Shown in pieces: positions 10,559-64,000 of a stretch of 64,000 nucleotides of DNA; positions within the stretch are counted from its first letter, which is position 1; each line of letters starts with the position of its first letter. The DNA lies in NCBI GenBank assembly GCA_964350645.1, contig CAYGJY010000002.1, forward strand, positions 161,538-225,537, read 5' to 3'. The stretch is from an uncultured Candidatus Saccharibacteria bacterium (GTDB taxonomy: Bacteria; Patescibacteriota; Minisyncoccia; Phycocordibacterales; UBA918). The notes under the pieces were generated by a model that was not told the DNA's origin, made no database searches, and saw nothing but the letters and a program-made list of their open reading frames with translations. The position numbers were made by a program, and so were the translations under genes.

Positions 10559-10661
10559 TGATGGGAAATAGCGTAGATTTACTCTCTGTATTTCCACATA
10601 GCGTAATACCTCCGCTACCCTCACAGTATATCATGAGCTTTTTGAAAGTAGCTGTGGATTA

Positions 10662-10702
10662 TATACAAAAAGGCCGGCGCTTTGCGCCGGCCTTTTTGTA
10701 TA
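10662..10702. terminator. 41-nt perfect palindromic bidirectional terminator (CCGGCGC-core family)
   Basis: tatacaaaaaggccggcgc ttt gcgccggcctttttgtata. Confidence 0.65.
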
Positions 10703-10714
10703 CCGAGTGGAGAT

Positions 10715-10987
10715 TTATTTAACGGCGTCCTTGAGTGCCTTAGCAGCTCGGAACTTTGGCACGCGCATTGCTGGTACTTCAATTGGCTCACCAGTGCGAG
10801 GGTTTCGCGCAGTTCGAGCGTTTCGCATTTTAGCTGAGAAAATACCGAGGCCTGCGATTGAGACTTCGTTACCGTCTTTGAGTGTATTTACGATACAACC
10901 CATCATAATTTCAACTGCTCGCTCTGCGTCAGCCTTAGTGATTCCAAGGTCTTCGTGCACTTTGTTGATGATATCTGCCTTATTCAT
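10715..10987 (-). CDS. hup: HU family DNA-binding protein
   Basis: MNKADIINKV...GLGIFSAK...RNPRTGEPIEVPA, the classic HU/IHF signature. Confidence 0.85.
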   Translation of the reverse strand: MNKADIINKVHEDLGITKADAERAVEIMMGCIVNTLKDGNEVSIAGLGIFSAKMRNARTARNPRTGEPIEVPAMRVPKFRAAKALKDAVK

Positions 10988-11169
10988 ATGATCTGAATAG
11001 TTATTGTTTAATGGCGTGTAATGTGTGCCGCTAGGACACAGCCCGTAATAAATGGCTAAGAACATTATATATCAAGGTTTTGGTGTCGCAACGTCTTGTA
11101 AAGTGTTTTTTGTGTGTTGTGGTTTTAAGCCGTTTTTTAAAGACCTGGCACTGTGTTACTATTGCGCAC

Positions 11170-37675: not shown

Positions 37676-37812
37676 TGAATTTTCTATTCATTGTTCTTGG
37701 AATTTGTTTTGTGTAAAGAAACAAATTTGGAACTAAATTCACAATAGTCGTTACTTGCCTTTGTTCATGTATCTTGCAAAATAACCTATTTGTAGTATTC
37801 TTTCGGAGCTTT

Positions 37813-54542: not shown

Positions 54543-54553
54543 TCTCTGTGCTC

Positions 54554-54600
54554 TGAACATACAAAAGGCCGGCGCTTCGCGCCGGCCTTTTGTATGTTCA
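54554..54600. terminator. 47-nt perfect palindromic terminator between fusA and tuf
   Basis: tgaacatacaaaaggccggcgc ttc gcgccggccttttgtatgttca. Confidence 0.7.
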
Positions 54601-54826
54601 GTTTCTCGATCTAGCTTGCAAAAATCAGCCGGTTTGCTAAGATTGCCCCACCGCACCGGCATCTGGCTGGGTCGGAGTATACATATTGTTTGCTCTTTCA
54701 CACTCACGTGTACTAAGAGATAGCGTAACTGTTCTCGTGACGCTTTCCCTCAGTGCTCGTGCATGGCTTTTCATATGAAAAGCAGCCGTGTGCGGATTAT
54801 TAATTAACTAAATTTTATTTAGTATT

Positions 54827-56037: not shown

Positions 56038-56394
56038 ATGGCTACAAACACATCATCTAAATCAAAGAAAGACGCAGCGGCTGGCGAAATCCAGAAGCTT
56101 CGTATTCGTGTTCGCGCTTATGAGCACAAGATTCTTGACGCTTCAGTCAAGCAGATTACTGACACAGCCGCTCGCTTTGATGCGACTGTTGTTGGACCAA
56201 TTCCGCTACCAACTGAAATCAAGAAGTACACAGTAAACCGTTCAACGTTCGTCCATAAGGATGCGCGAGAACAATTCGAGATGCGCATGCACAAACGTGT
56301 CATCGACATCATGAATCCGAGCGGCAAAGTCATTGAGGCTTTGACCAACCTGTCACTGCCCTCTGGCGTGAACATTGATGTAAAGATGATCTAA
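56038..56394 (+). CDS. rpsJ: 30S ribosomal protein S10
   Basis: KLRIRVRAYEHKILD...GPIPLPT; conserved tuf-rpsJ order. Confidence 0.9.
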   Translation: MATNTSSKSKKDAAAGEIQKLRIRVRAYEHKILDASVKQITDTAARFDATVVGPIPLPTEIKKYTVNRSTFVHKDAREQFEMRMHKRVIDIMNPSGKVIEALTNLSLPSGVNIDVKMI

Positions 56395-56405
56395 GTGTTG
56401 CTATA

Positions 56406-56442
56406 ACAAAAGGCCGGCCCCGTAGGGGCCGGCCTTTTGTGT
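56406..56442. terminator. 37-nt palindromic terminator, identical in sequence to the one at 62166-62202
   Basis: acaaaaggccggcccc gta ggggccggccttttgtgt. Confidence 0.7.
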
Positions 56443-56460: not shown

Positions 56461-56853
56461 TTACCCAGCGATAAAGACATCTGAGTAGAGAGTAGTGCCA
56501 TCGAATTCGCAGGTAACCAACTTCCACATGTTGTTGGTATTGTATGCAATTGATTCACAAAGTGTACGAGCCTCGGCTTCTGATGCAACTTCGTTTTGAA
56601 GAGTAGTGCCGCCTTCAATCGTGATAGTTACAGTTTTGAGAGCAATCATTTCTTCGCTAGTTTCAAACTGAATACCAGCTACTTCACCAGCTGGACTCAT
56701 ACTTTGTTTGGCAGCATCAAGATTGAGCTGTAAAACTGCTAGGTCAGCTTTGGCTGCGTGTAACTCAGCGAGCAAGTGCTCAACAGTAGACGCCTGGGCT
56801 AACGGAGCTACTAAAAAAGTAGCTAGGGCAAAGATTGAGAAGATAAATTTCAT
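56461..56853 (-). CDS. Small secreted protein
   Basis: Signal peptide MKFIFSIFALATFLVAPLAQA. Confidence 0.45.
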   Translation of the reverse strand: MKFIFSIFALATFLVAPLAQASTVEHLLAELHAAKADLAVLQLNLDAAKQSMSPAGEVAGIQFETSEEMIALKTVTITIEGGTTLQNEVASEAEARTLCESIAYNTNNMWKLVTCEFDGTTLYSDVFIAG

Positions 56854-57332
56854 ACTTTATGTATTAAGATTGAATAGATATTGAAACTAAACTGTAATAA
56901 GTATACTGATTAATTAACTTTTGTCAAGTATTAGCGACTCAAAAAGTAAAGAAAAAACTCGTCACCTGAGGGCTACGAGTTTTTTCTTTACCTCCAACGT
57001 ACAGGTGCCTGTGGACACAAGTGCGTTAGTTTATGTGTGATGGGAAATGCAGTAGCACATTCCCGTGCACTACTGCCTAGTCTAAACAGCGGCTGGCTGC
57101 CTAAACAGATGTGGATCGTGTAGAGCACATCCTACTTACTATGACGCACCAGGTAGCAAAATCTTTCAGAAGTAGTGGCAGCTAGCGCACCCTAGTCAAA
57201 ACTGACTACCTCACTCCCGCACTGCCCCAGCCAAGCCGACCCATTACGAGATCGCTCGCCCGCTAGCTTTGGACAGAGGGGTTTCAAAACTTCTCGTTAT
57301 TATAGTAAGGCAGTCTCAACAACCTAATATTT

Positions 57333-57350
57333 ACTATCATATATGATAGT
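57333..57350. promoter_or_regulatory. Operator-like perfect palindrome ACTATCATATATGATAGT (copy 1), 15 nt after the yerC-like stop
   Basis: 18-bp perfect dyad. Confidence 0.5.
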
Positions 57351-57364
57351 GAGATTACATTGGA

Positions 57365-57781
57365 TTATTTTGATCCGGGAAAGAGTAAGAAGTGCAATGG
57401 ATATTTTTTCTTTAACGCTGCTAGTCCAAATGGATTAGCTTTGATATCTCGCTGGTTTTGTCTCTTTTGTAATTCAGACTCAAGTCCTTTGATGGCGTCC
57501 CGATATCCTGGCATTTGTTTCCGTAGCCATTTCTCGACCTTAACAATTGTATTGGGTCCAACTTCTAACTGTTCACCAATGTCTGCATGAGTATGACCAG
57601 AGAGCAATAGCCTCGCAATCCATATGCGCCTTCCCAGCATGATTCGCTCACTTGGAGTTAAGAGTTCTTTTAAAAATGCTTTAGTAGCATCTCTGCCTTT
57701 CACTGCTCCGGCTGCAGTATAAAGCATATCAAGAGTCTCCATTTGTTGCTGGTTAGTCAGCTGATCTAATTTTTTCTTCAT
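57365..57781 (-). CDS. TrpR-related YerC/YecD-family DNA-binding protein
   Basis: LTPSERIMLGRRIWIARLLLSGHTHADIGEQLEVGPNTIVKV, a Trp_repressor-like HTH. Confidence 0.7.
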   Translation of the reverse strand: MKKKLDQLTNQQQMETLDMLYTAAGAVKGRDATKAFLKELLTPSERIMLGRRIWIARLLLSGHTHADIGEQLEVGPNTIVKVEKWLRKQMPGYRDAIKGLESELQKRQNQRDIKANPFGLAALKKKYPLHFLLFPGSK

Positions 57782-57789
57782 ATATAAAT

Positions 57790-57807
57790 ACTATCATATA
57801 TAATAGT
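57790..57807. promoter_or_regulatory. Operator copy 2 (ACTATCATATATAATAGT, one mismatch), 9 bp upstream of the regulator start codon
   Basis: 17 of 18 identity to copy 1; overlaps the likely promoter. Confidence 0.5.
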
Positions 57808-57856
57808 AAGTTCGTAAGTTACTTTGTGCCATGAAGTGAAAAAATAAAGATTTTTC

Positions 57857-57874
57857 ACTATCATATATGATAGT
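57857..57874. promoter_or_regulatory. Operator copy 3 (perfect ACTATCATATATGATAGT)
   Basis: Perfect dyad about 76 bp upstream of the regulator start. Confidence 0.5.
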
Positions 57875-57906
57875 GAAATAGAGGATGTTGGAATGTTCAA
57901 ATTTAC

Positions 57907-57955
57907 AAATGAAAACACCCCACCGCAATGAGTTATCCCTCCTTTCTTCCGCGCT
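57907..57955. repeat. 49-bp direct repeat, copy A
   Basis: aaatgaaaacaccccaccgcaatgagttatccctcctttcttccgcgct. Confidence 0.6.
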
Positions 57956-57967
57956 CACGATGTACAC

Positions 57968-58978
57968 CTAATCTTGATGAGTAAGTCTTTCAGCTAACGT
58001 AGGTATTTTACTGAAATCAAATTCAGGATTATGTGTCTGTATATAGTCAATAGTGGCGTCAAGTGTTTCTATCATTATTTCTTCGGCTAATGGCTCCCGT
58101 TCTGCTTCCGGTGCTGCATACAGACCCTTAATTTTTTCATTGATGGCTGGTAGGTGTACGCTATTCAGTTCTACTGCACCAGAATCTGTTAATACATCGT
58201 AGTATGTTTGCAGCCTTTCGCTTGCCGACAGATCTTTGTGTGAGTGATATAGACTGCCAAGGAGTAGAAAAGGCGCTAGCTGATAGTAAGTGTTAAGTCC
58301 ATTGCTAATAAAGGCTGCTCGGAAATTCTGCTGCGTCTCTAGATCGGGACTGAATAAGTGCAGTCCGTTACTGGCTGTGAACACTTCTGATGGGATATCT
58401 TTTTTTGCAACAGCGCACAGTAATAACAGATTCGCAACCGCTGAGGTGGTGTGTTCTTGGTCGCCACAGACACCGTGCATAGCTTCGTGGCAAATTAATT
58501 GGAGAAACTCGATCGCTGGGATATCGCCTCGCATCAAAAGTAGGTTCGCCCCCTCAGCGTCAGCTGACTCGTGCATGAATCTACCTAGGAGTGATTTTGG
58601 ATTATCTAATGGCCCAAAGGTCTGCACTGAAGTTTCTTTATCAAACACTACCATAGCAGTAGTTGTGGACATGCCGTCAAATGCTTCTGGAATAGCTTCC
58701 TGGAGTCCATTTTTTCCAGAAACTTGTGAAAAGGCCCATTGTAAAAAATTGACAAATTCTCGCTGCTCTCTTTCTGTCAGGTCTGCCACTATTGTTTCGG
58801 TGTCTTCGAGAAGTGTAAGTAGTTCAGTGGCATCCCAGTCGCCCTCAATTGTTTCAAATTGATGTGCTATGTAGCCAGCTGACTCCTGTGCTTTCAATAT
58901 TTCAGGCAAAGCTGCAGTCCCACCAAGTGCAACGGCACTAGTGATAAATTCCCTTCTGTTTAGTAGTGGTTTTTCCAT
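57968..58978 (-). CDS. Tat-signal protein with an HExxH motif (putative secreted zinc-dependent hydrolase)
   Basis: N-terminus MEKPLLNRREFITSAVALGGTAALP (RRxFI twin-arginine-like); LICHEAMHGVCGDQEH. Confidence 0.5.
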   Translation of the reverse strand: MEKPLLNRREFITSAVALGGTAALPEILKAQESAGYIAHQFETIEGDWDATELLTLLEDTETIVADLTEREQREFVNFLQWAFSQVSGKNGLQEAIPEAFDGMSTTTAMVVFDKETSVQTFGPLDNPKSLLGRFMHESADAEGANLLLMRGDIPAIEFLQLICHEAMHGVCGDQEHTTSAVANLLLLCAVAKKDIPSEVFTASNGLHLFSPDLETQQNFRAAFISNGLNTYYQLAPFLLLGSLYHSHKDLSASERLQTYYDVLTDSGAVELNSVHLPAINEKIKGLYAAPEAEREPLAEEIMIETLDATIDYIQTHNPEFDFSKIPTLAERLTHQD

Positions 58979-59008
58979 ATAACATCAATAATATCGTATC
59001 GATCATAA

Positions 59009-59057
59009 AAATGAAAACACCCCACCGCAATGAGTTATTCCTCCTTTCTTCCGCGCT
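59009..59057. repeat. 49-bp direct repeat, copy B (48 of 49 identical); here it is extended into a complete hairpin
   Basis: aaatgaaaacaccccaccgcaatgagttattcctcctttcttccgcgct, followed by gtgcggtgggggtgttttc. Confidence 0.6.
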
Positions 59058-59074
59058 GTGCGGTGGGGGTGTTT

Positions 59075-59347
59075 TCATTTGGTGGGGATATTTGTGTTCC
59101 TGCTGAGTATCAGCCAGGCGGCGTTACTGCCGCCAATTGGGCATTCTAGTACTCCGATACATCCCAGTTCTTCAGCTGAGACAAGCATTTCAGCTTGCGT
59201 GCCACGTTTAAGTTTTTGATGTTCTCCGTTTTTAAGCAGTGCAAAGAATGCGTTGACGAAGTTGAAAGTTTCTTTATTCAATTCCGTGTGCAGCCTGCAC
59301 CCAAGTTCTGCAAGGATGAGCATGACTGTATTGTGCGGTATCTCCAT
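59075..59347 (-). CDS. Hypothetical small protein (90 aa)
   Basis: ORF in the same orientation as the three other insert genes. Confidence 0.3.
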   Translation of the reverse strand: MEIPHNTVMLILAELGCRLHTELNKETFNFVNAFFALLKNGEHQKLKRGTQAEMLVSAEELGCIGVLECPIGGSNAAWLILSRNTNIPTK

Positions 59348-59475
59348 CGGAGCCTCCTATTTTGCATGTGAACCATAAACCCTTGCAAAGCGCAACAAAA
59401 TCCGTATACTACCGGGAGCTTACTAAAGACCTATGTTCGGTGATGGCTCGCTTGCGAGCTTGAGAACCAATGGGC

Positions 59476-59533
59476 AGAAATCGCGCCGTTTTGCGTGCGA
59501 GCATTCTGCTCGCGTCAAAACGGCGCGATTTCT
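59476..59533. promoter_or_regulatory. Very stable nested hairpin upstream of rplC (18-bp outer stem plus 7-bp inner stem) with no T-tract; candidate leader or regulatory RNA structure
   Basis: agaaatcgcgccgttttg cgtgcgagcattctgctcgcgt caaaacggcgcgatttct. Confidence 0.4.
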
Positions 59534-59575
59534 CATTTGAGGTCTAATAAGCAAATTATTAGATAAGGTTACAGA

Positions 59576-60196
59576 ATGAAATTCATTTTAGGAACCAAGG
59601 CAGGGATGACCCAAGTTTTTGACGAACAAGGAGTCGCTTTCCCAGTAACGCTATTGCGTGTGCCGAAGACCATCGTAACGGCTGTGAAAACAGTTGAGAA
59701 AGATGGTTACGAGGCGGTGCAGGTAGCAGCTGGTGAACAAAAAGAGTCTCGTGTTGCGAAAGCAACTCGAATCGGACTCGGCGGCGCGTACCAATTCGTG
59801 CAAGAATTTCGTCCCCGCAAAACCCAAAGTGAGTCAATCGACGGGATCGAAAAAGGGGCTGAGTTTGACGCTTCAGTTTTTACTGCAGGCGACACGGTTA
59901 CCGTTTCAGCAATCTCGAAAGGAAAAGGCTTCCAAGGGGTAGTAAAGCGTCATAACTTTGCTGGAGACAAGGCGTCACACGGACGCAAACACTCTGGACG
60001 TTCACCAGGTTCAATTGGAGCAACTGGACCAGCTCGAGTTTTCAAAGGAAAGAAGATGGCTGGACGAATGGGAACTGATCGGGTAACGGTCAAGAATCTT
60101 ATGGTTGTCCAAGTTAATCCAGAAGAAAATATTCTGCTTATTAAAGGAGCAGTCCCCGGTCGAAAAGGAACATTAGTAGAGGTTCGTAGCGCATAA
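59576..60196 (+). CDS. rplC: 50S ribosomal protein L3
   Basis: MKFILGTKAGMTQVFDEQG... Confidence 0.95.
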   Translation: MKFILGTKAGMTQVFDEQGVAFPVTLLRVPKTIVTAVKTVEKDGYEAVQVAAGEQKESRVAKATRIGLGGAYQFVQEFRPRKTQSESIDGIEKGAEFDASVFTAGDTVTVSAISKGKGFQGVVKRHNFAGDKASHGRKHSGRSPGSIGATGPARVFKGKKMAGRMGTDRVTVKNLMVVQVNPEENILLIKGAVPGRKGTLVEVRSA

Positions 60197-60883: not shown

Positions 60884-61270
60884 ATGCCTTTATTTGGAAA
60901 AAAGAAAGACGCTGACAGCGCTGCCCCGAAAGAGACTGCAGAGGTAACTAAGAAAGTTGCTCCAAAGAGCACTGCTTTGGTTACTGATCGCAACCTTTCA
61001 TCAGTCATCATCAAACCACGGATAACTGAAAAGGCAGTGAAGCAAGGTGAACGCAATGTGTATACATTTGTCGTTCGCCAAGATGCGACTAAGTTTGACA
61101 TCCGTGACGCCATCAAGGCGCACTATGGAGTCACTCCAGTCAAAGTGCATACCGTGACCCAGACACCCCGACAAGTTATGTCGCGGAGTAAAGGTCGCAA
61201 AATTGCGCAAAAGGGTTTGAAGAAAGCCTATGTGTACTTACAAGCCGGTGACTCAATTGAGCTCGCATAA
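60884..61270 (+). CDS. rplW: 50S ribosomal protein L23 with an N-terminal extension
   Basis: VIIKPRITEKAV...YTFVV... Confidence 0.85.
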   Translation: MPLFGKKKDADSAAPKETAEVTKKVAPKSTALVTDRNLSSVIIKPRITEKAVKQGERNVYTFVVRQDATKFDIRDAIKAHYGVTPVKVHTVTQTPRQVMSRSKGRKIAQKGLKKAYVYLQAGDSIELA

Positions 61271-61284
61271 TCTAACTCAGATAT

Positions 61285-62148
61285 ATGAAAAAACTCAAAC
61301 CAACATCACCAGGCCGACGCGGGATGACCGTGATCGAGTACAAGAAGAAGCTCACGACAAACCAAAGTAACCCACATAAGTCACTTACGAAAGGTAAGCG
61401 CAGTACTGGTGGACGCAACTCACAAGGTCGCATCACTACCTGGTACCGTGGAGCTGGTAACAAGCGAAAGTATCGTGCAGTTGACTTTAAGTTCGACAAG
61501 AAAGATATTCCCGCTAAGATCGAAACAATCGAGTACGATCCATACCGATCAGGTTTTATTGCTCTTGTGTTGTATGCCGATGGTGAACGTCGGTACATCC
61601 TGGTGCCACAAGGTATGAAAGAAGGAGATACCTTCATTGTGTCTGAAACAGCGAAGACAACGACTGGTAACCGTTTGCCACTCGCAAAAATCCCACTCGG
61701 TACTTTTGTGTACGGGATTGAAACGAAGCCAAACGGCGGTGCGCGCATTGCTCGCTCAGCCGGTAACTACGCTGAAGTGGTAGCACATGACGCGGGGTAC
61801 ACCCAAGTCAAGATGCCATCAACTGAAATTCGTAAGATTCTCTCAAGCTGTTGGGCAACCATTGGTGAAGTATCAAACGAAGAACACCGATTGGTAACGA
61901 TTGGTAAAGCGGGGCGCGCTCGGCATATGGGACTTCGACCGAAGACTCGTGGAACTGCCAAGAACCCAGTTGACCACCCTCATGGAGGTGGAGAGCAAAA
62001 ATCCCCACGTGGTCATCGTCGGCAGCGAACCAAGCAAGGTCGCCCGACTGGTAAAGGTCAAAAGACCCGATCACCGAAGAAGTATTCCAACAAGCTTATC
62101 GTCCAACGACGAAAGCCAGGAAAATTGATGCAAGGTAACAAGAAGTAG
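61285..62148 (+). CDS. rplB: 50S ribosomal protein L2
   Basis: MKKLKPTSPGRRG...GGGEQK... Confidence 0.95.
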   Translation: MKKLKPTSPGRRGMTVIEYKKKLTTNQSNPHKSLTKGKRSTGGRNSQGRITTWYRGAGNKRKYRAVDFKFDKKDIPAKIETIEYDPYRSGFIALVLYADGERRYILVPQGMKEGDTFIVSETAKTTTGNRLPLAKIPLGTFVYGIETKPNGGARIARSAGNYAEVVAHDAGYTQVKMPSTEIRKILSSCWATIGEVSNEEHRLVTIGKAGRARHMGLRPKTRGTAKNPVDHPHGGGEQKSPRGHRRQRTKQGRPTGKGQKTRSPKKYSNKLIVQRRKPGKLMQGNKK

Positions 62149-62165
62149 CCAAGCAAAAAATAAAC

Positions 62166-62202
62166 ACAAAAGGCCGGCCCCGTAGGGGCCGGCCTTTTGT
62201 GT
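62166..62202. terminator. 37-nt palindromic terminator identical to 56406-56442
   Basis: acaaaaggccggcccc gta ggggccggccttttgtgt. Confidence 0.7.
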
Positions 62203-62211
62203 TTAATTTAT

Positions 62212-62532
62212 TCAAACCCCGGGCTTTCTGGTTCGTTCTTTGAATTCAAAGAGTTTGAGTTTTTTGTCTTCCTGTAGTTGCTGGAAAATTTGTGGAGCGG
62301 GTGAGGTTGTATGAACAGCGACTTTCTGGGCTGACTGGCCGGAAATGAGAAGCTCCATACCAGCGGTGGTATAGGTGGCCGTAACATGGCGCGCGCCGCC
62401 CCGGCGGCGCGCGCCCGTACGAATTTCACCGGGAGCGATCATTTTTACTCCGGGAAGCTTTTTTAGAACCTGCACCACTAAAGCAGCGGTCTCAGTTAGA
62501 GTAGTATGTTCGTTTCCTCGGGGTTTTGGCAT
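62212..62532 (-). CDS. Questionable 106-aa ORF inside the rplB-rpsS insert. No SD and no recognisable family. It contains a 28-nt all-GC palindrome read as RRRGGAR.
   Basis: ORF length only. Confidence 0.2.
   Translation of the reverse strand: MPKPRGNEHTTLTETAALVVQVLKKLPGVKMIAPGEIRTGARRRGGARHVTATYTTAGMELLISGQSAQKVAVHTTSPAPQIFQQLQEDKKLKLFEFKERTRKPGV
62388..62415. repeat. 28-nt 100%-GC perfect palindrome (12-bp stem, tetraloop)
   Basis: ggcgcgcgccgc cccg gcggcgcgcgcc. Confidence 0.6.
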
Positions 62533-62577
62533 GAGTGAACCTTACCACACTTCTGTATCACGCAGTCTAGAAAACCA

Positions 62578-62612
62578 TTGACACTCCTATATATTTCGCG
62601 TAGTATTTGCGC
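62578..62612 (+). promoter_or_regulatory. Promoter-like TTGACA, 17-nt spacer, TAGTAT, pointing toward rpsS
   Basis: Consensus -35 with an acceptable -10 and a 17-nt spacer. Confidence 0.4.
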
Positions 62613-62859
62613 GTTCCCAACCTCAGTGTTCTAAAAGCCTGGCAGCCGATAGAACACAAACCAAATAAGAAATCCCAGGTAGTTGGCCGTTAACCAGCCC
62701 TGGATCAAAGATTTCGGACAGAAAGCACAATAGTGGTGCTTTTTATTAGTTAATGGAGTTCAGCGAAACGTTAGAGTGCGTGTTCCAGGAATTCGCCCTA
62801 GGAATGGGGCGAATTCGGAACTAAATTCTGAATAGTCGTTACACTCCTTTCATCATTTA

Positions 62860-63189
62860 ATGTCACGATCACTACACAAAGGACCAAACGTTGACGAACG
62901 TCTTCTGAAGAAGATTGCTGGTAAGAAGCCAGTCGATTTCAAGGAGCCGATCAAAGTTTGGAACCGCGCCGCAGTCATCTCTCCAGAAATGGTTGGCTTT
63001 ACCTTTGGCGTGCACAACGGCAAAGAACACAAGCCAGTTACACCATCAGAAGAAATGGTTGGTCATAAACTCGGTGAGTTTTCAGAAACTACCCGATTCT
63101 GGCGTCATGGAGGTAAGATGCAGAAAGAACTTGATCAGAAGAAGAAAGAAGCTGAAATTTCAGCTGCTAAAGCTGCTAAGGCTGCCTAA
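62860..63189 (+). CDS. rpsS: 30S ribosomal protein S19 with a Lys/Ala-rich C-terminal extension
   Basis: MSRSLHKGP...[10 protein letters not shown]... Confidence 0.9.
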
Positions 63190-63194
63190 GTATT

Positions 63195-63512
63195 ATGAAA
63201 GCAGTACTAAAAAATTACCGCCAATCACCTCGTAAAGTCCGCCTTGTGGCTGATCTCGTGCGAGGTAAGAAGGTGAAGGATGCTCTCAACACGTTACGGT
63301 TTGTTGATAAGCGAGCATCAGAGCCGTTTGCGAAGGTTATCAAGTCAGCGCTGGCTAACGCCACTGACAAAGGTGTCAACGCAGATACACTCAAAATTAC
63401 AAAGGTCACTGTCGATAAGGGCCCAACGTACAAGCGCATGATGCCACGAGCTCGTGGTAGCGCTTCACGGATTAATAAGCGTAATAGCCACATCACTGTG
63501 GAACTTGGATAG
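63195..63512 (+). CDS. rplV: 50S ribosomal protein L22
   Basis: [19 protein letters not shown]... Confidence 0.9.
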
Positions 63513-63515
63513 ATA

Positions 63516-64000
63516 TGACACACGTAGCACATCCATACGTTCAGCGTATTGGCATCAACCGAGACTGGCGGAGTCGCTGGTTTGCCGGTGATAAGAAAAA
63601 ATTCCGAGAGTATCTCCGCACCGACGCAGCGATCCGTAAGCTCCTTGAAAAAAAGCTCAAGGGTATGTCGATCGATGCAATTGAAATCGAGCGTGATGAA
63701 AAGGCATTACGCATTCTCGTGAAGACCTCACGACCAGGATTGGTCATTGGTCGGAGCGGAGAAGGGGCGGTTACTCTGAAGAAGGAGGTAGATATGCTTC
63801 TGCGTACTCTCAAGCTTTCAGAGAAGCCTGATATCAAAATCGATATTGAAGAAATTCGTTCACCAGAATCATCAGCCGCGATTGTTGGCCAGATGATTGT
63901 TGAGGGACTTGAGAAACGATTTCCGTTTCGCCGTGTTCTTAAACAAACTGTTGAAAAAGTCATGGCTAACCGTGACGTCGAAGGAGTGCGTATCATTCTT
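63516..64000 (+). CDS. rpsC: 30S ribosomal protein S3, 3'-partial at the window end
   Basis: MTHVAHPYVQRIGINRDWRSRWFA...KH-domain region; the ORF runs off the window. Confidence 0.85.

Follow-up and report, generated by a model that had tools for sequence, protein, structure and literature searches.

The window analysed here is a 64,000-nucleotide (nt) stretch of contig CAYGJY010000002.1 from an uncultured Candidatus Saccharibacteria bacterium, and the subject of this study is the segment that separates rplB from rpsS in the ribosomal-protein cluster at its right end. rplB and rpsS are adjacent in most bacteria, and rpsS is an internal gene there. In the window, gene calls place the end of rplB (61285-62148, plus strand) at 62148 and the start of rpsS (62860-63189, plus strand) at 62860, and the gap of 62149-62859 reported by an earlier, model-made first-pass annotation is therefore real. 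The segment holds, from left to right, a palindrome with the features of a bidirectional intrinsic terminator, a minus-strand gene for a 106-amino-acid (aa) basic protein of the DUF2103 family (PF09876), a predicted sigma-70-type promoter, and two structured elements on the rpsS strand that we call module A and module B. Upstream, rplC (59576-60196, plus strand), rplD, rplW and rplB follow one another within the same cluster; downstream, rpsS is the first gene of an S19-L22-S3-L16-L29-S17-L14-L24-L5 unit, with rplV and rpsC next.

A synteny scan with one genome per species yielded 64 DUF2103 loci, all from metagenome-assembled genomes (MAGs) of Patescibacteria labelled Parcubacteria, Paceibacteria, Nomurabacteria, Kaiserbacteria or "Saccharibacteria". 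Divergent placement of rpsS and rplV, on the strand opposite to DUF2103, holds in 57 of the 64 species loci; three of the seven loci without rpsS are cut by a contig end, with the rpsS leader still visible at the edge. On the other side of DUF2103, rplB, rplW, rplD and rplC are convergent with it in 42/64, and distances between the genes range from ~50 bp up to several kb. Although the first-pass annotation had called the segment an insert, gene order of this breadth argues against a recent insertion, and we read the rplB/DUF2103/rpsS order as ancestral and as holding across the lineage. In the same genome, beyond the right end of the window (L176 161-1896), an opposite-strand methyltransferase-like gene after rplE interrupts the ribosomal cluster again, which places S14 and S8 outside the rpsS unit. 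Fragmentation of the S10/spc cluster thus extends throughout the lineage, with the position of DUF2103 beside the rpsS leader as its most stable link. The presence of DUF2103 as a wedge in the S10 cluster appears to be unreported.

rplB on the plus strand and DUF2103 on the minus strand converge on the palindrome at 62157-62209, which lies 9 nt past the rplB stop and 3 nt from the end of DUF2103. Its 25-nt arms enclose a 3-nt loop, with an A-run upstream and a T-run downstream; the 20-pair stem contains 12 GC pairs and, together with its T-rich tails, scores as a terminator on both strands. The palindrome thus has the GC-rich stem-loop, the T-run and the location after a stop codon by which intrinsic terminators are recognised. 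As the first-pass annotation had noticed, its 37-nt core, ACAAAAGGCCGGCCCCGTAGGGGCCGGCCTTTTGTGT, is the same as that of the palindrome after rpsJ (56038-56394, plus strand): the two are identical at 62166-62202 and 56406-56442 (matched by 0/100 shuffles), the latter lying between the convergent rpsJ and a minus-strand open reading frame (ORF) at 56461-56853. A perfect 23-nt inverted repeat after fusA (54553-54601) has a ACAAAAGGCCGGC core in common with both 37-nt terminators, and the ACAAAAGGCCGGC-type terminator theme recurs in loci L008, L011, L026 and L056. All three palindromes of the window are ordinary bidirectional terminators. The one at 62157-62209 has the same GC-rich perfect stem, A-run and T-run flanks and convergent stop codons as other bidirectional intrinsic terminators between convergent genes, and the sole oddity is that 37 bases are identical at two sites 5.7 kb apart, an identity that suggests copying between the sites.

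The near-consensus promoter proposed earlier is well borne out. TTGACA-17 nt-TAGTAT at 62578-62606 (plus strand) scores 10/12, the top value among promoter-like sites in 59-64 kb. As a class such sites do not exceed chance (6 found versus 4.6 expected), and the candidate is credible because it is conserved in other species, not because of class enrichment: in ~46 related loci a motif GTTCC(C)A(A)ACCTC is found at a fixed distance behind TTGACn-N17-TAnnnT, always reading towards rpsS. Its hexamers, a spacing within the 16-18 nt range and a conserved position are those of a sigma-70 promoter.

Behind this predicted promoter lies module A, a predicted rpsS leader of ~135 nt (62613-62751, plus strand) supported by promoter spacing, fold, covariation and a covariance-model match. 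The predicted RNA begins with GUUCCCAACCUC, ~7 nt past the -10 box, and folds into two hairpins plus a terminator-like hairpin (z -2.9). Its parts, all on the plus strand, are the conserved 5' motif GTTCCCAACCTC (62613-62624) and, by fold and comparison, hairpin P2 with the loop GCCTGGCAGC (62626-62657), hairpin P3 with the apex loop CCGTTAA (62670-62714) and a final hairpin, AGCAC...GTGCT (5-6 bp), followed by TTTTTATT (62723-62751). This last hairpin and its T-run had been put forward as a possible attenuator; the cross-species comparison supports the terminator-like hairpin itself. The majority type of module A was aligned from 18 species; its main hairpin, with the apex GGCCGUUACCUGU, shows 96.8% pairing, both partners have changed in nine pairs, and several pairs alternate between G-C and G-U. 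Shuffles never reached these values, and slid controls fell far below them. Since a G-U pair on the rpsS strand is a C-A mismatch on the other, the module A fold belongs to the sense strand of rpsS.

A covariance model built from the 18 majority-type sequences, with the window left out, matches 37 of 65 related loci, always just upstream of rpsS and on its strand, and module A is specific to rpsS in the related loci searched. When the model was run with filters off, its best match in 61000-64000 was exactly 62613-62747. The window's own type of leader is common to the window, L001, L028, L115, L067, L026, L032 and L054, and the alignment of these window-type leaders is too poor for a consensus fold. 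Comparison of the window with L028 and L115 shows that the loops GCCUGGCAG and CCGUUAA are kept, as are the final hairpin, which itself covaries, and its U-run, and that the stems have diverged through compensatory changes.

The 78 nt that immediately precede the rpsS ATG share 80-90% identity with sequences from distant species and with another site in the window, 37687-37774. This is module B, which consists of two hairpins on the plus strand. The first (HP1, 62782-62821; ~-25 kcal/mol, with covariation) has a 5-bp base, GTTCC/GGAAC, an AG bulge and a 10-bp upper stem; the second (HP2, 62822-62859) is weak and AT-rich and contains a pair of UC/UC internal loops; its 3' arm reaches as far as the base that precedes the rpsS ATG. 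A covariance model of module B scores 103 bits at 62776-62862 and 81.5 bits at 37687-37774, the plus-strand copy upstream of rpsL (ATG ~37813), and thus confirms the motif that the first-pass annotation had seen in front of both genes. The rpsL copy differs in its setting: it lies 40 nt from the ATG, with a separate TG-TAGTAT box and then a GGAG Shine-Dalgarno (SD) sequence downstream of it. Across copies, the mean folding energy is -20 kcal/mol for HP1 and -1.8 kcal/mol for HP2. HP1 is 97.3% paired (15 copies), with 10/15 pairs changing on both sides, and its 30 G-U versus 9 A-C pairs favour the sense strand. HP2 follows the pattern UAAAU-UC-NNNA...UNNN-UC-AUUUA around a conserved apex, AUAGUC-RY-UAC-RY-UC, and is 93.3% paired (56 copies); six of its pairs covary, with up to four pair types, as at pair 14-35 (GC 21, AU 13, UA 11, CG 10, one mismatch), and the apical RY/RY pairs covary too.

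A semi-conserved GTTnGAnT precedes HP1 (62768-62775 in the window; 4-14 nt upstream in many copies). It falls within the segment that is swapped between strains, described below, and resembles a T-loop only loosely. Pairing of GTTnGAnT with the HP2 5' arm is seen in the minimum-energy fold of the window and fails, by eye, in L074 and L081. Other readings of module B were likewise rejected. A small upstream ORF running through HP1 and ending at the conserved TAG is open in 37/76 copies, and only 19 have an upstream start codon. Three further candidates were set aside: an extracytoplasmic function (ECF)-type promoter (GGAAC-N15-CGY), which is at odds with the short spacing and with base-pair covariation at GGAAC and the RY positions; a boxA/nut-like site (CGCUC), whose bases vary; and a kink-turn, for which the sense strand offers no 3-nt bulge followed by G-A pairs.

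The minus-strand ORF at 62212-62532 is, judged by its Pfam match, homologues, synteny and strain alleles, a real gene of a conserved family under purifying selection. The first-pass annotation had regarded it as the only ORF of the gap, possibly spurious, and had named conserved homologues as the observation that would make it a genuine gene. Two other ORFs exist, both without support, and the homologues are there: 653 of them (E<=0.001), nearly all of 105-106 aa and with identities down to ~50%, most carrying the same precomputed Pfam match. The window protein itself scores 26.8 bits against PF09876 (E 4.9e-06; residues 7-77 on profile positions 8-83 of 98), which clears the family gathering score of 22.4 bits by a narrow margin. 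Among 19 aligned sequences, 36 columns are invariant, including EH[TS][TS]LTETA, MIAPGEI and GxELxISGQSxQK; the invariant residues include H9, H74 and several T, E, R, K and Q. Between the window and the near-identical strain L001, the DUF2103 alleles differ at 31 synonymous and 9 non-synonymous codons. The lack of an SD sequence, which had been held against the ORF, carries little weight as counter-evidence: TAAGG lies 9-13 nt upstream, and the local ribosomal-protein genes, rpsS among them, are also without SDs.

A confident AlphaFold2 model of the DUF2103 protein from 82 sequences has an alpha/beta fold (mean predicted local distance difference test score, pLDDT, 82.5; predicted template-modelling score, pTM, 0.72). 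The protein finds no match in the PDB by sequence and none in NCBIfam, and a Foldseek search with the model returned nothing better than E 0.15 with a template-modelling score of 0.40; weak matches to a ~70-residue chain of eukaryotic large ribosomal subunits recurred in that search and were rejected as not significant. Pfam labels PF09876 a 'predicted metal-binding protein', which we take to be a prediction rather than a tested property, and the label is doubtful for the window protein because this strongly basic sequence has zero cysteines in its 106 aa. Here the family is represented by a housekeeping-type gene adjoining ribosomal operons, a genomic setting for which we found no literature on DUF2103. 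An improbable further possibility is that this protein, always encoded beside the rpsS leader, binds module A RNA or associates with ribosomes as a lineage-specific factor.

We put at about 70% the probability that the segment is a junction of two ribosomal-protein transcription units, typical of Patescibacteria and of Parcubacteria/Paceibacteria-type MAGs. Under this reading, rplB and the convergent DUF2103 would end at their shared bidirectional terminator, and the promoter at 62578-62606 would start a new transcript near 62613. Module A is most likely a cis-acting leader, a candidate attenuator or protein-binding feedback site, and would act in one of these two ways on the S19-to-L5 unit. 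Module B would be transcribed as part of the 5' untranslated region (UTR), with HP1 as a stable clamp and HP2 as a weak hairpin that holds, below its conserved apex, the 15 nt before an SD-less start codon; it may tune translation initiation or mRNA stability, and recombination may move it between genes. We consider it improbable that module B goes further and serves as a portable substitute for an SD sequence, its two stacked hairpins and conserved apex placing the SD-less start codon on the ribosome or protecting and presenting it, while recombination spreads the cassette between genes and strains; were this true, bacteria with tiny genomes would share a plug-in translation start for their housekeeping genes.

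Several observations weigh against parts of the two-unit reading. The window's module A reaches only 14.7 bits against the majority-type model and is thus a divergent variant, and neither a conserved antiterminator pairing nor a ligand was identified for module A. We infer transcription start near 62613, termination at 62745-62751 and read-through beyond it from sequence. A search for rRNA mimicry in modules A and B (local alignment to E. coli 16S, 23S and 5S with shuffles, 15 comparisons) was negative: the single match above noise, between the P2 loop and the 5' end of 5S (z 3.1, 1/200 shuffles), is weak across 15 comparisons, and a likeness to 16S positions 975-995 scored only z 0.67. A minus-strand promoter for DUF2103 was looked for and not found. 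For module B, the signals as to which strand folds conflict: HP2 pair 7-42 is A-C in 19/56 copies, the antisense fold is the more stable in 57/71 copies, and the conserved UC/UC loops of HP2 would be tandem G-A pairs on the opposite strand. Moreover, some 5% of the copies run in the inverted orientation and adjoin a stop codon, and promoters are not enriched within 120 nt upstream of module B copies relative to shuffled sequence.

The conflict over strands bears directly on a different account of module B, in which it is a selfish DNA repeat akin to a miniature inverted-repeat transposable element (MITE), with arms kept by a DNA-level or single-stranded-DNA mechanism and with no role in rpsS expression. 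An exact-pattern scan found 107 metagenome stretches with module B, and its MITE-like traits are evident: genomes carry several copies, in both orientations and sometimes in tandem; presence differs between orthologous loci, in that some rpsS leaders carry module B between module A and the ATG and others do not; and near-identical strains have exchanged the cassette. Identity between the window and L001 is 99.3-100% across rpsS-rpsC and 99% in module A, whereas at 62774-62850 it drops to ~70% and both stem arms are replaced; the near-identical flanks imply that the cassette was exchanged as a unit. On the other hand, the stems covary, whereas a transposase-binding end would be conserved in sequence, and HP1 has its excess of sense-strand G-U pairs. 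Orientation is also strongly biased, with 52 copies pointing towards the downstream gene and only 4 inverted. Spacing to the ATG is fixed within 0-8 nt in half of the copies: an ORF starts within 8 nt of the HP2 end in 42 of 85 non-redundant copies, most commonly with the ATG directly after the last base, while the other 43 comprise 10 with a long ORF further downstream, the 4 inverted copies at stop codons, 24 with no clear ORF and 5 at a contig end. No transposase gene was seen beside the copies, and, apart from the hairpin arms, no terminal inverted repeats were identified, nor any target-site duplications. We judge the selfish-repeat account unlikely, if the best placed of the alternatives.

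The genes that follow module B include S19, S14, L11, TopA, RecR, EF-P, DnaX, MreB and a type II secretion system/type IV pilus (T2SS/T4P) ATPase; Hsp20, GreA-like and DnaB-like genes start further from their copies. Inverted copies lie at other break points of the ribosomal cluster, in L012 at 1211-1297 (rplE stop) and in L035 at 10586-10673 and L039 at 10984-11068 (rpsJ stop). L109 carries two tandem copies 121 nt apart (1424-1604), the first truncated inside HP2. Module B is a dispersed cassette, probably of 5' UTRs, that precedes the start codons of many unrelated housekeeping genes, and not a ribosomal-protein leader. BOX, ERIC, Correia/CREE and REP elements are transcribed intergenic repeats that fold into hairpins. 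Module B is likewise short, dispersed, multi-copy, hairpin-forming and located in untranslated regions, with a presence that varies. It differs from them in that half of its copies stop exactly at a start codon, its sequence is 80-90% conserved over many species, and it has two defined hairpins with a conserved apex. Module B is a previously uncatalogued variant of the hairpin-forming intergenic repeats.

For module A, the alternative is a free-standing gene for a trans-acting small RNA, running from the promoter at 62578-62606 to the terminator at 62723-62751, with rpsS transcribed separately. A strong promoter, a compact structured RNA of ~135 nt and a terminator-like end are what such a gene would have, and its 5' 11-12 nt are invariant, single-stranded in the consensus and seed-like. 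Yet module A is invariably found immediately in front of rpsS, on the rpsS strand; many species have the rpsS ATG ~20 nt past the last hairpin of the leader, too close for a further promoter to fit; the T-runs behind this hairpin are often short (AUUUAU); and no second promoter was found between 62751 and 62782 in the window. A trans-acting RNA is therefore doubtful in our view, and the cis-acting leader remains the preferred reading. In being a structured, promoter-proximal 5' leader with covarying hairpins, conserved loops and a terminator-like end, module A resembles known ribosomal-protein operon leaders (the E. coli S10 leader with L4; L10, L13, L19, L20, L21 and S15 in Rfam), from which it differs in matching no Rfam 15 family and in preceding rpsS. 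Among the ribosomal leader candidates of Eckert & Weinberg 2020 (PMC7247131), none is listed for rpsS or for Patescibacteria. Module A is a probable, previously uncatalogued ribosomal-protein operon leader.

The database searches gave the same picture for both modules. Searched against the 4227 families of Rfam 15 at gathering scores, the window matched only a tRNA. At E<=10, all matches of 62100-62900 were below gathering scores, and the best merely fitted the terminator palindrome; 11 related loci had no match in Rfam 15 either. The literature searched, including the leader survey PMC7247131, yielded nothing on the motifs of module A or module B or on rpsS or Patescibacteria leaders.

That the whole segment is foreign or mobile DNA recently inserted into an intact S10 operon is very unlikely. 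The idea draws on the adjacency of rplB and rpsS in most bacteria, on the identical 37-nt palindromes that bound two interruptions of the cluster, and on differences between strains: the DUF2103 alleles of the window and L001 diverge by 15%, against 99-100% identity in their ribosomal genes, and L001 carries an additional 1.6 kb. The same gene order in 57/64 species across the lineage, with DUF2103 identities down to 50%, stands against it; the break is ancestral, and the GC content of the segment is ordinary (window GC 46.6%). The extra DNA of L001 (2105-4000, compared with window 62533-62627) lies between DUF2103 and the rpsS promoter and consists of a CTP_transf_1 (cdsA-like) gene and two small ORFs. 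By these comparisons the locus is a recombination hot spot.

Within DUF2103 lies an all-GC run (62388-62417, minus strand) of 30 nt, the next-longest in the window being 14 nt. The first-pass annotation was right that the 28-nt palindrome in it is all-GC and extreme for this genome, but wrong that it is perfect: 13-nt arms flank an unpaired central CC. On the coding strand the run reads GGC GCG CGC CGC CGG GGC GGC GCG CGC, that is, G-A-R-R-R-G-G-A-R, and this Arg/Gly loop, GARRRGGAR, is kept as protein in close homologues. As DNA, the palindrome is identical in L001 and absent elsewhere, and no other species has a long GC run; L012 codes the same nine residues as GGC GCT CGT CGT CGT GGC GGT GCT CGT, with a longest GC run of 6 nt. 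Its identity between the window and L001 is not exceptional, since the two alleles share other unbroken identical stretches of 29-41 nt. We read the run as strain-level codon choice and not as a functional element, and would add, as speculation, that a template-switch mutation perhaps sharpened the palindrome. An extreme GC palindrome can be ordinary coding sequence. The view that the gap is entirely regulatory or RNA-encoding, with a spurious ORF and the palindrome as a functional nucleic-acid element, could call on the extremity of the run, its folding energy of ~-30 kcal/mol and its identity in two alleles 15% divergent overall, but is barely credible against a conserved protein family with 36 invariant columns and a 31:9 ratio of synonymous to non-synonymous differences; of the regulatory content proposed earlier, the promoter, the leader hairpin and the motif in common with rpsL stand, and the ORF and the palindrome drop out.

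Other features of the cluster lie to the left of the gap, where 3.2 kb of minus-strand ORFs separate rpsJ from rplC. A 26-nt palindromic motif (TTTACTATCATATATGATAGTGAGAT; core ACTATCATATATGATAGT) occurs three times in 57317-57890; its copies flank a minus-strand ORF at 57365-57781 (138 aa) and look like operators for a small DNA-binding regulator that this ORF would encode. A further minus-strand ORF at 57968-58978 (336 aa) is bracketed by a 52-nt direct repeat with 96% identity (57904-57955 and 59006-59057); the repeat includes AAAACACCCCACCGC, which pairs with GCGGTGGGGGTGTTTTC at 59058-59081. rplC has a promoter-like site of its own, TTGCAA-16-TATACT, at 59383-59410, and its leader contains a perfect 18-nt inverted repeat (59476-59493 and 59516-59533) followed by TTTCTCATTT. 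The stretch 59383-59575 may be another structured or attenuator leader, in this case of the rplC-rplB unit.

Bacteria of the candidate phyla radiation cannot be grown alone, and almost nothing is known of how they control gene expression. The locus described here gives two conserved, covariation-supported RNA structures that are absent from Rfam, a leader of the S19-to-L5 unit and a start-codon cassette, together with a small basic protein whose gene sits inside the ribosomal cluster throughout the lineage. Module A, module B and DUF2103 are all small enough to be studied in vitro or in a surrogate host. Should module B have a part in translation initiation, it would reveal by what means these bacteria begin translation in the absence of Shine-Dalgarno pairing.

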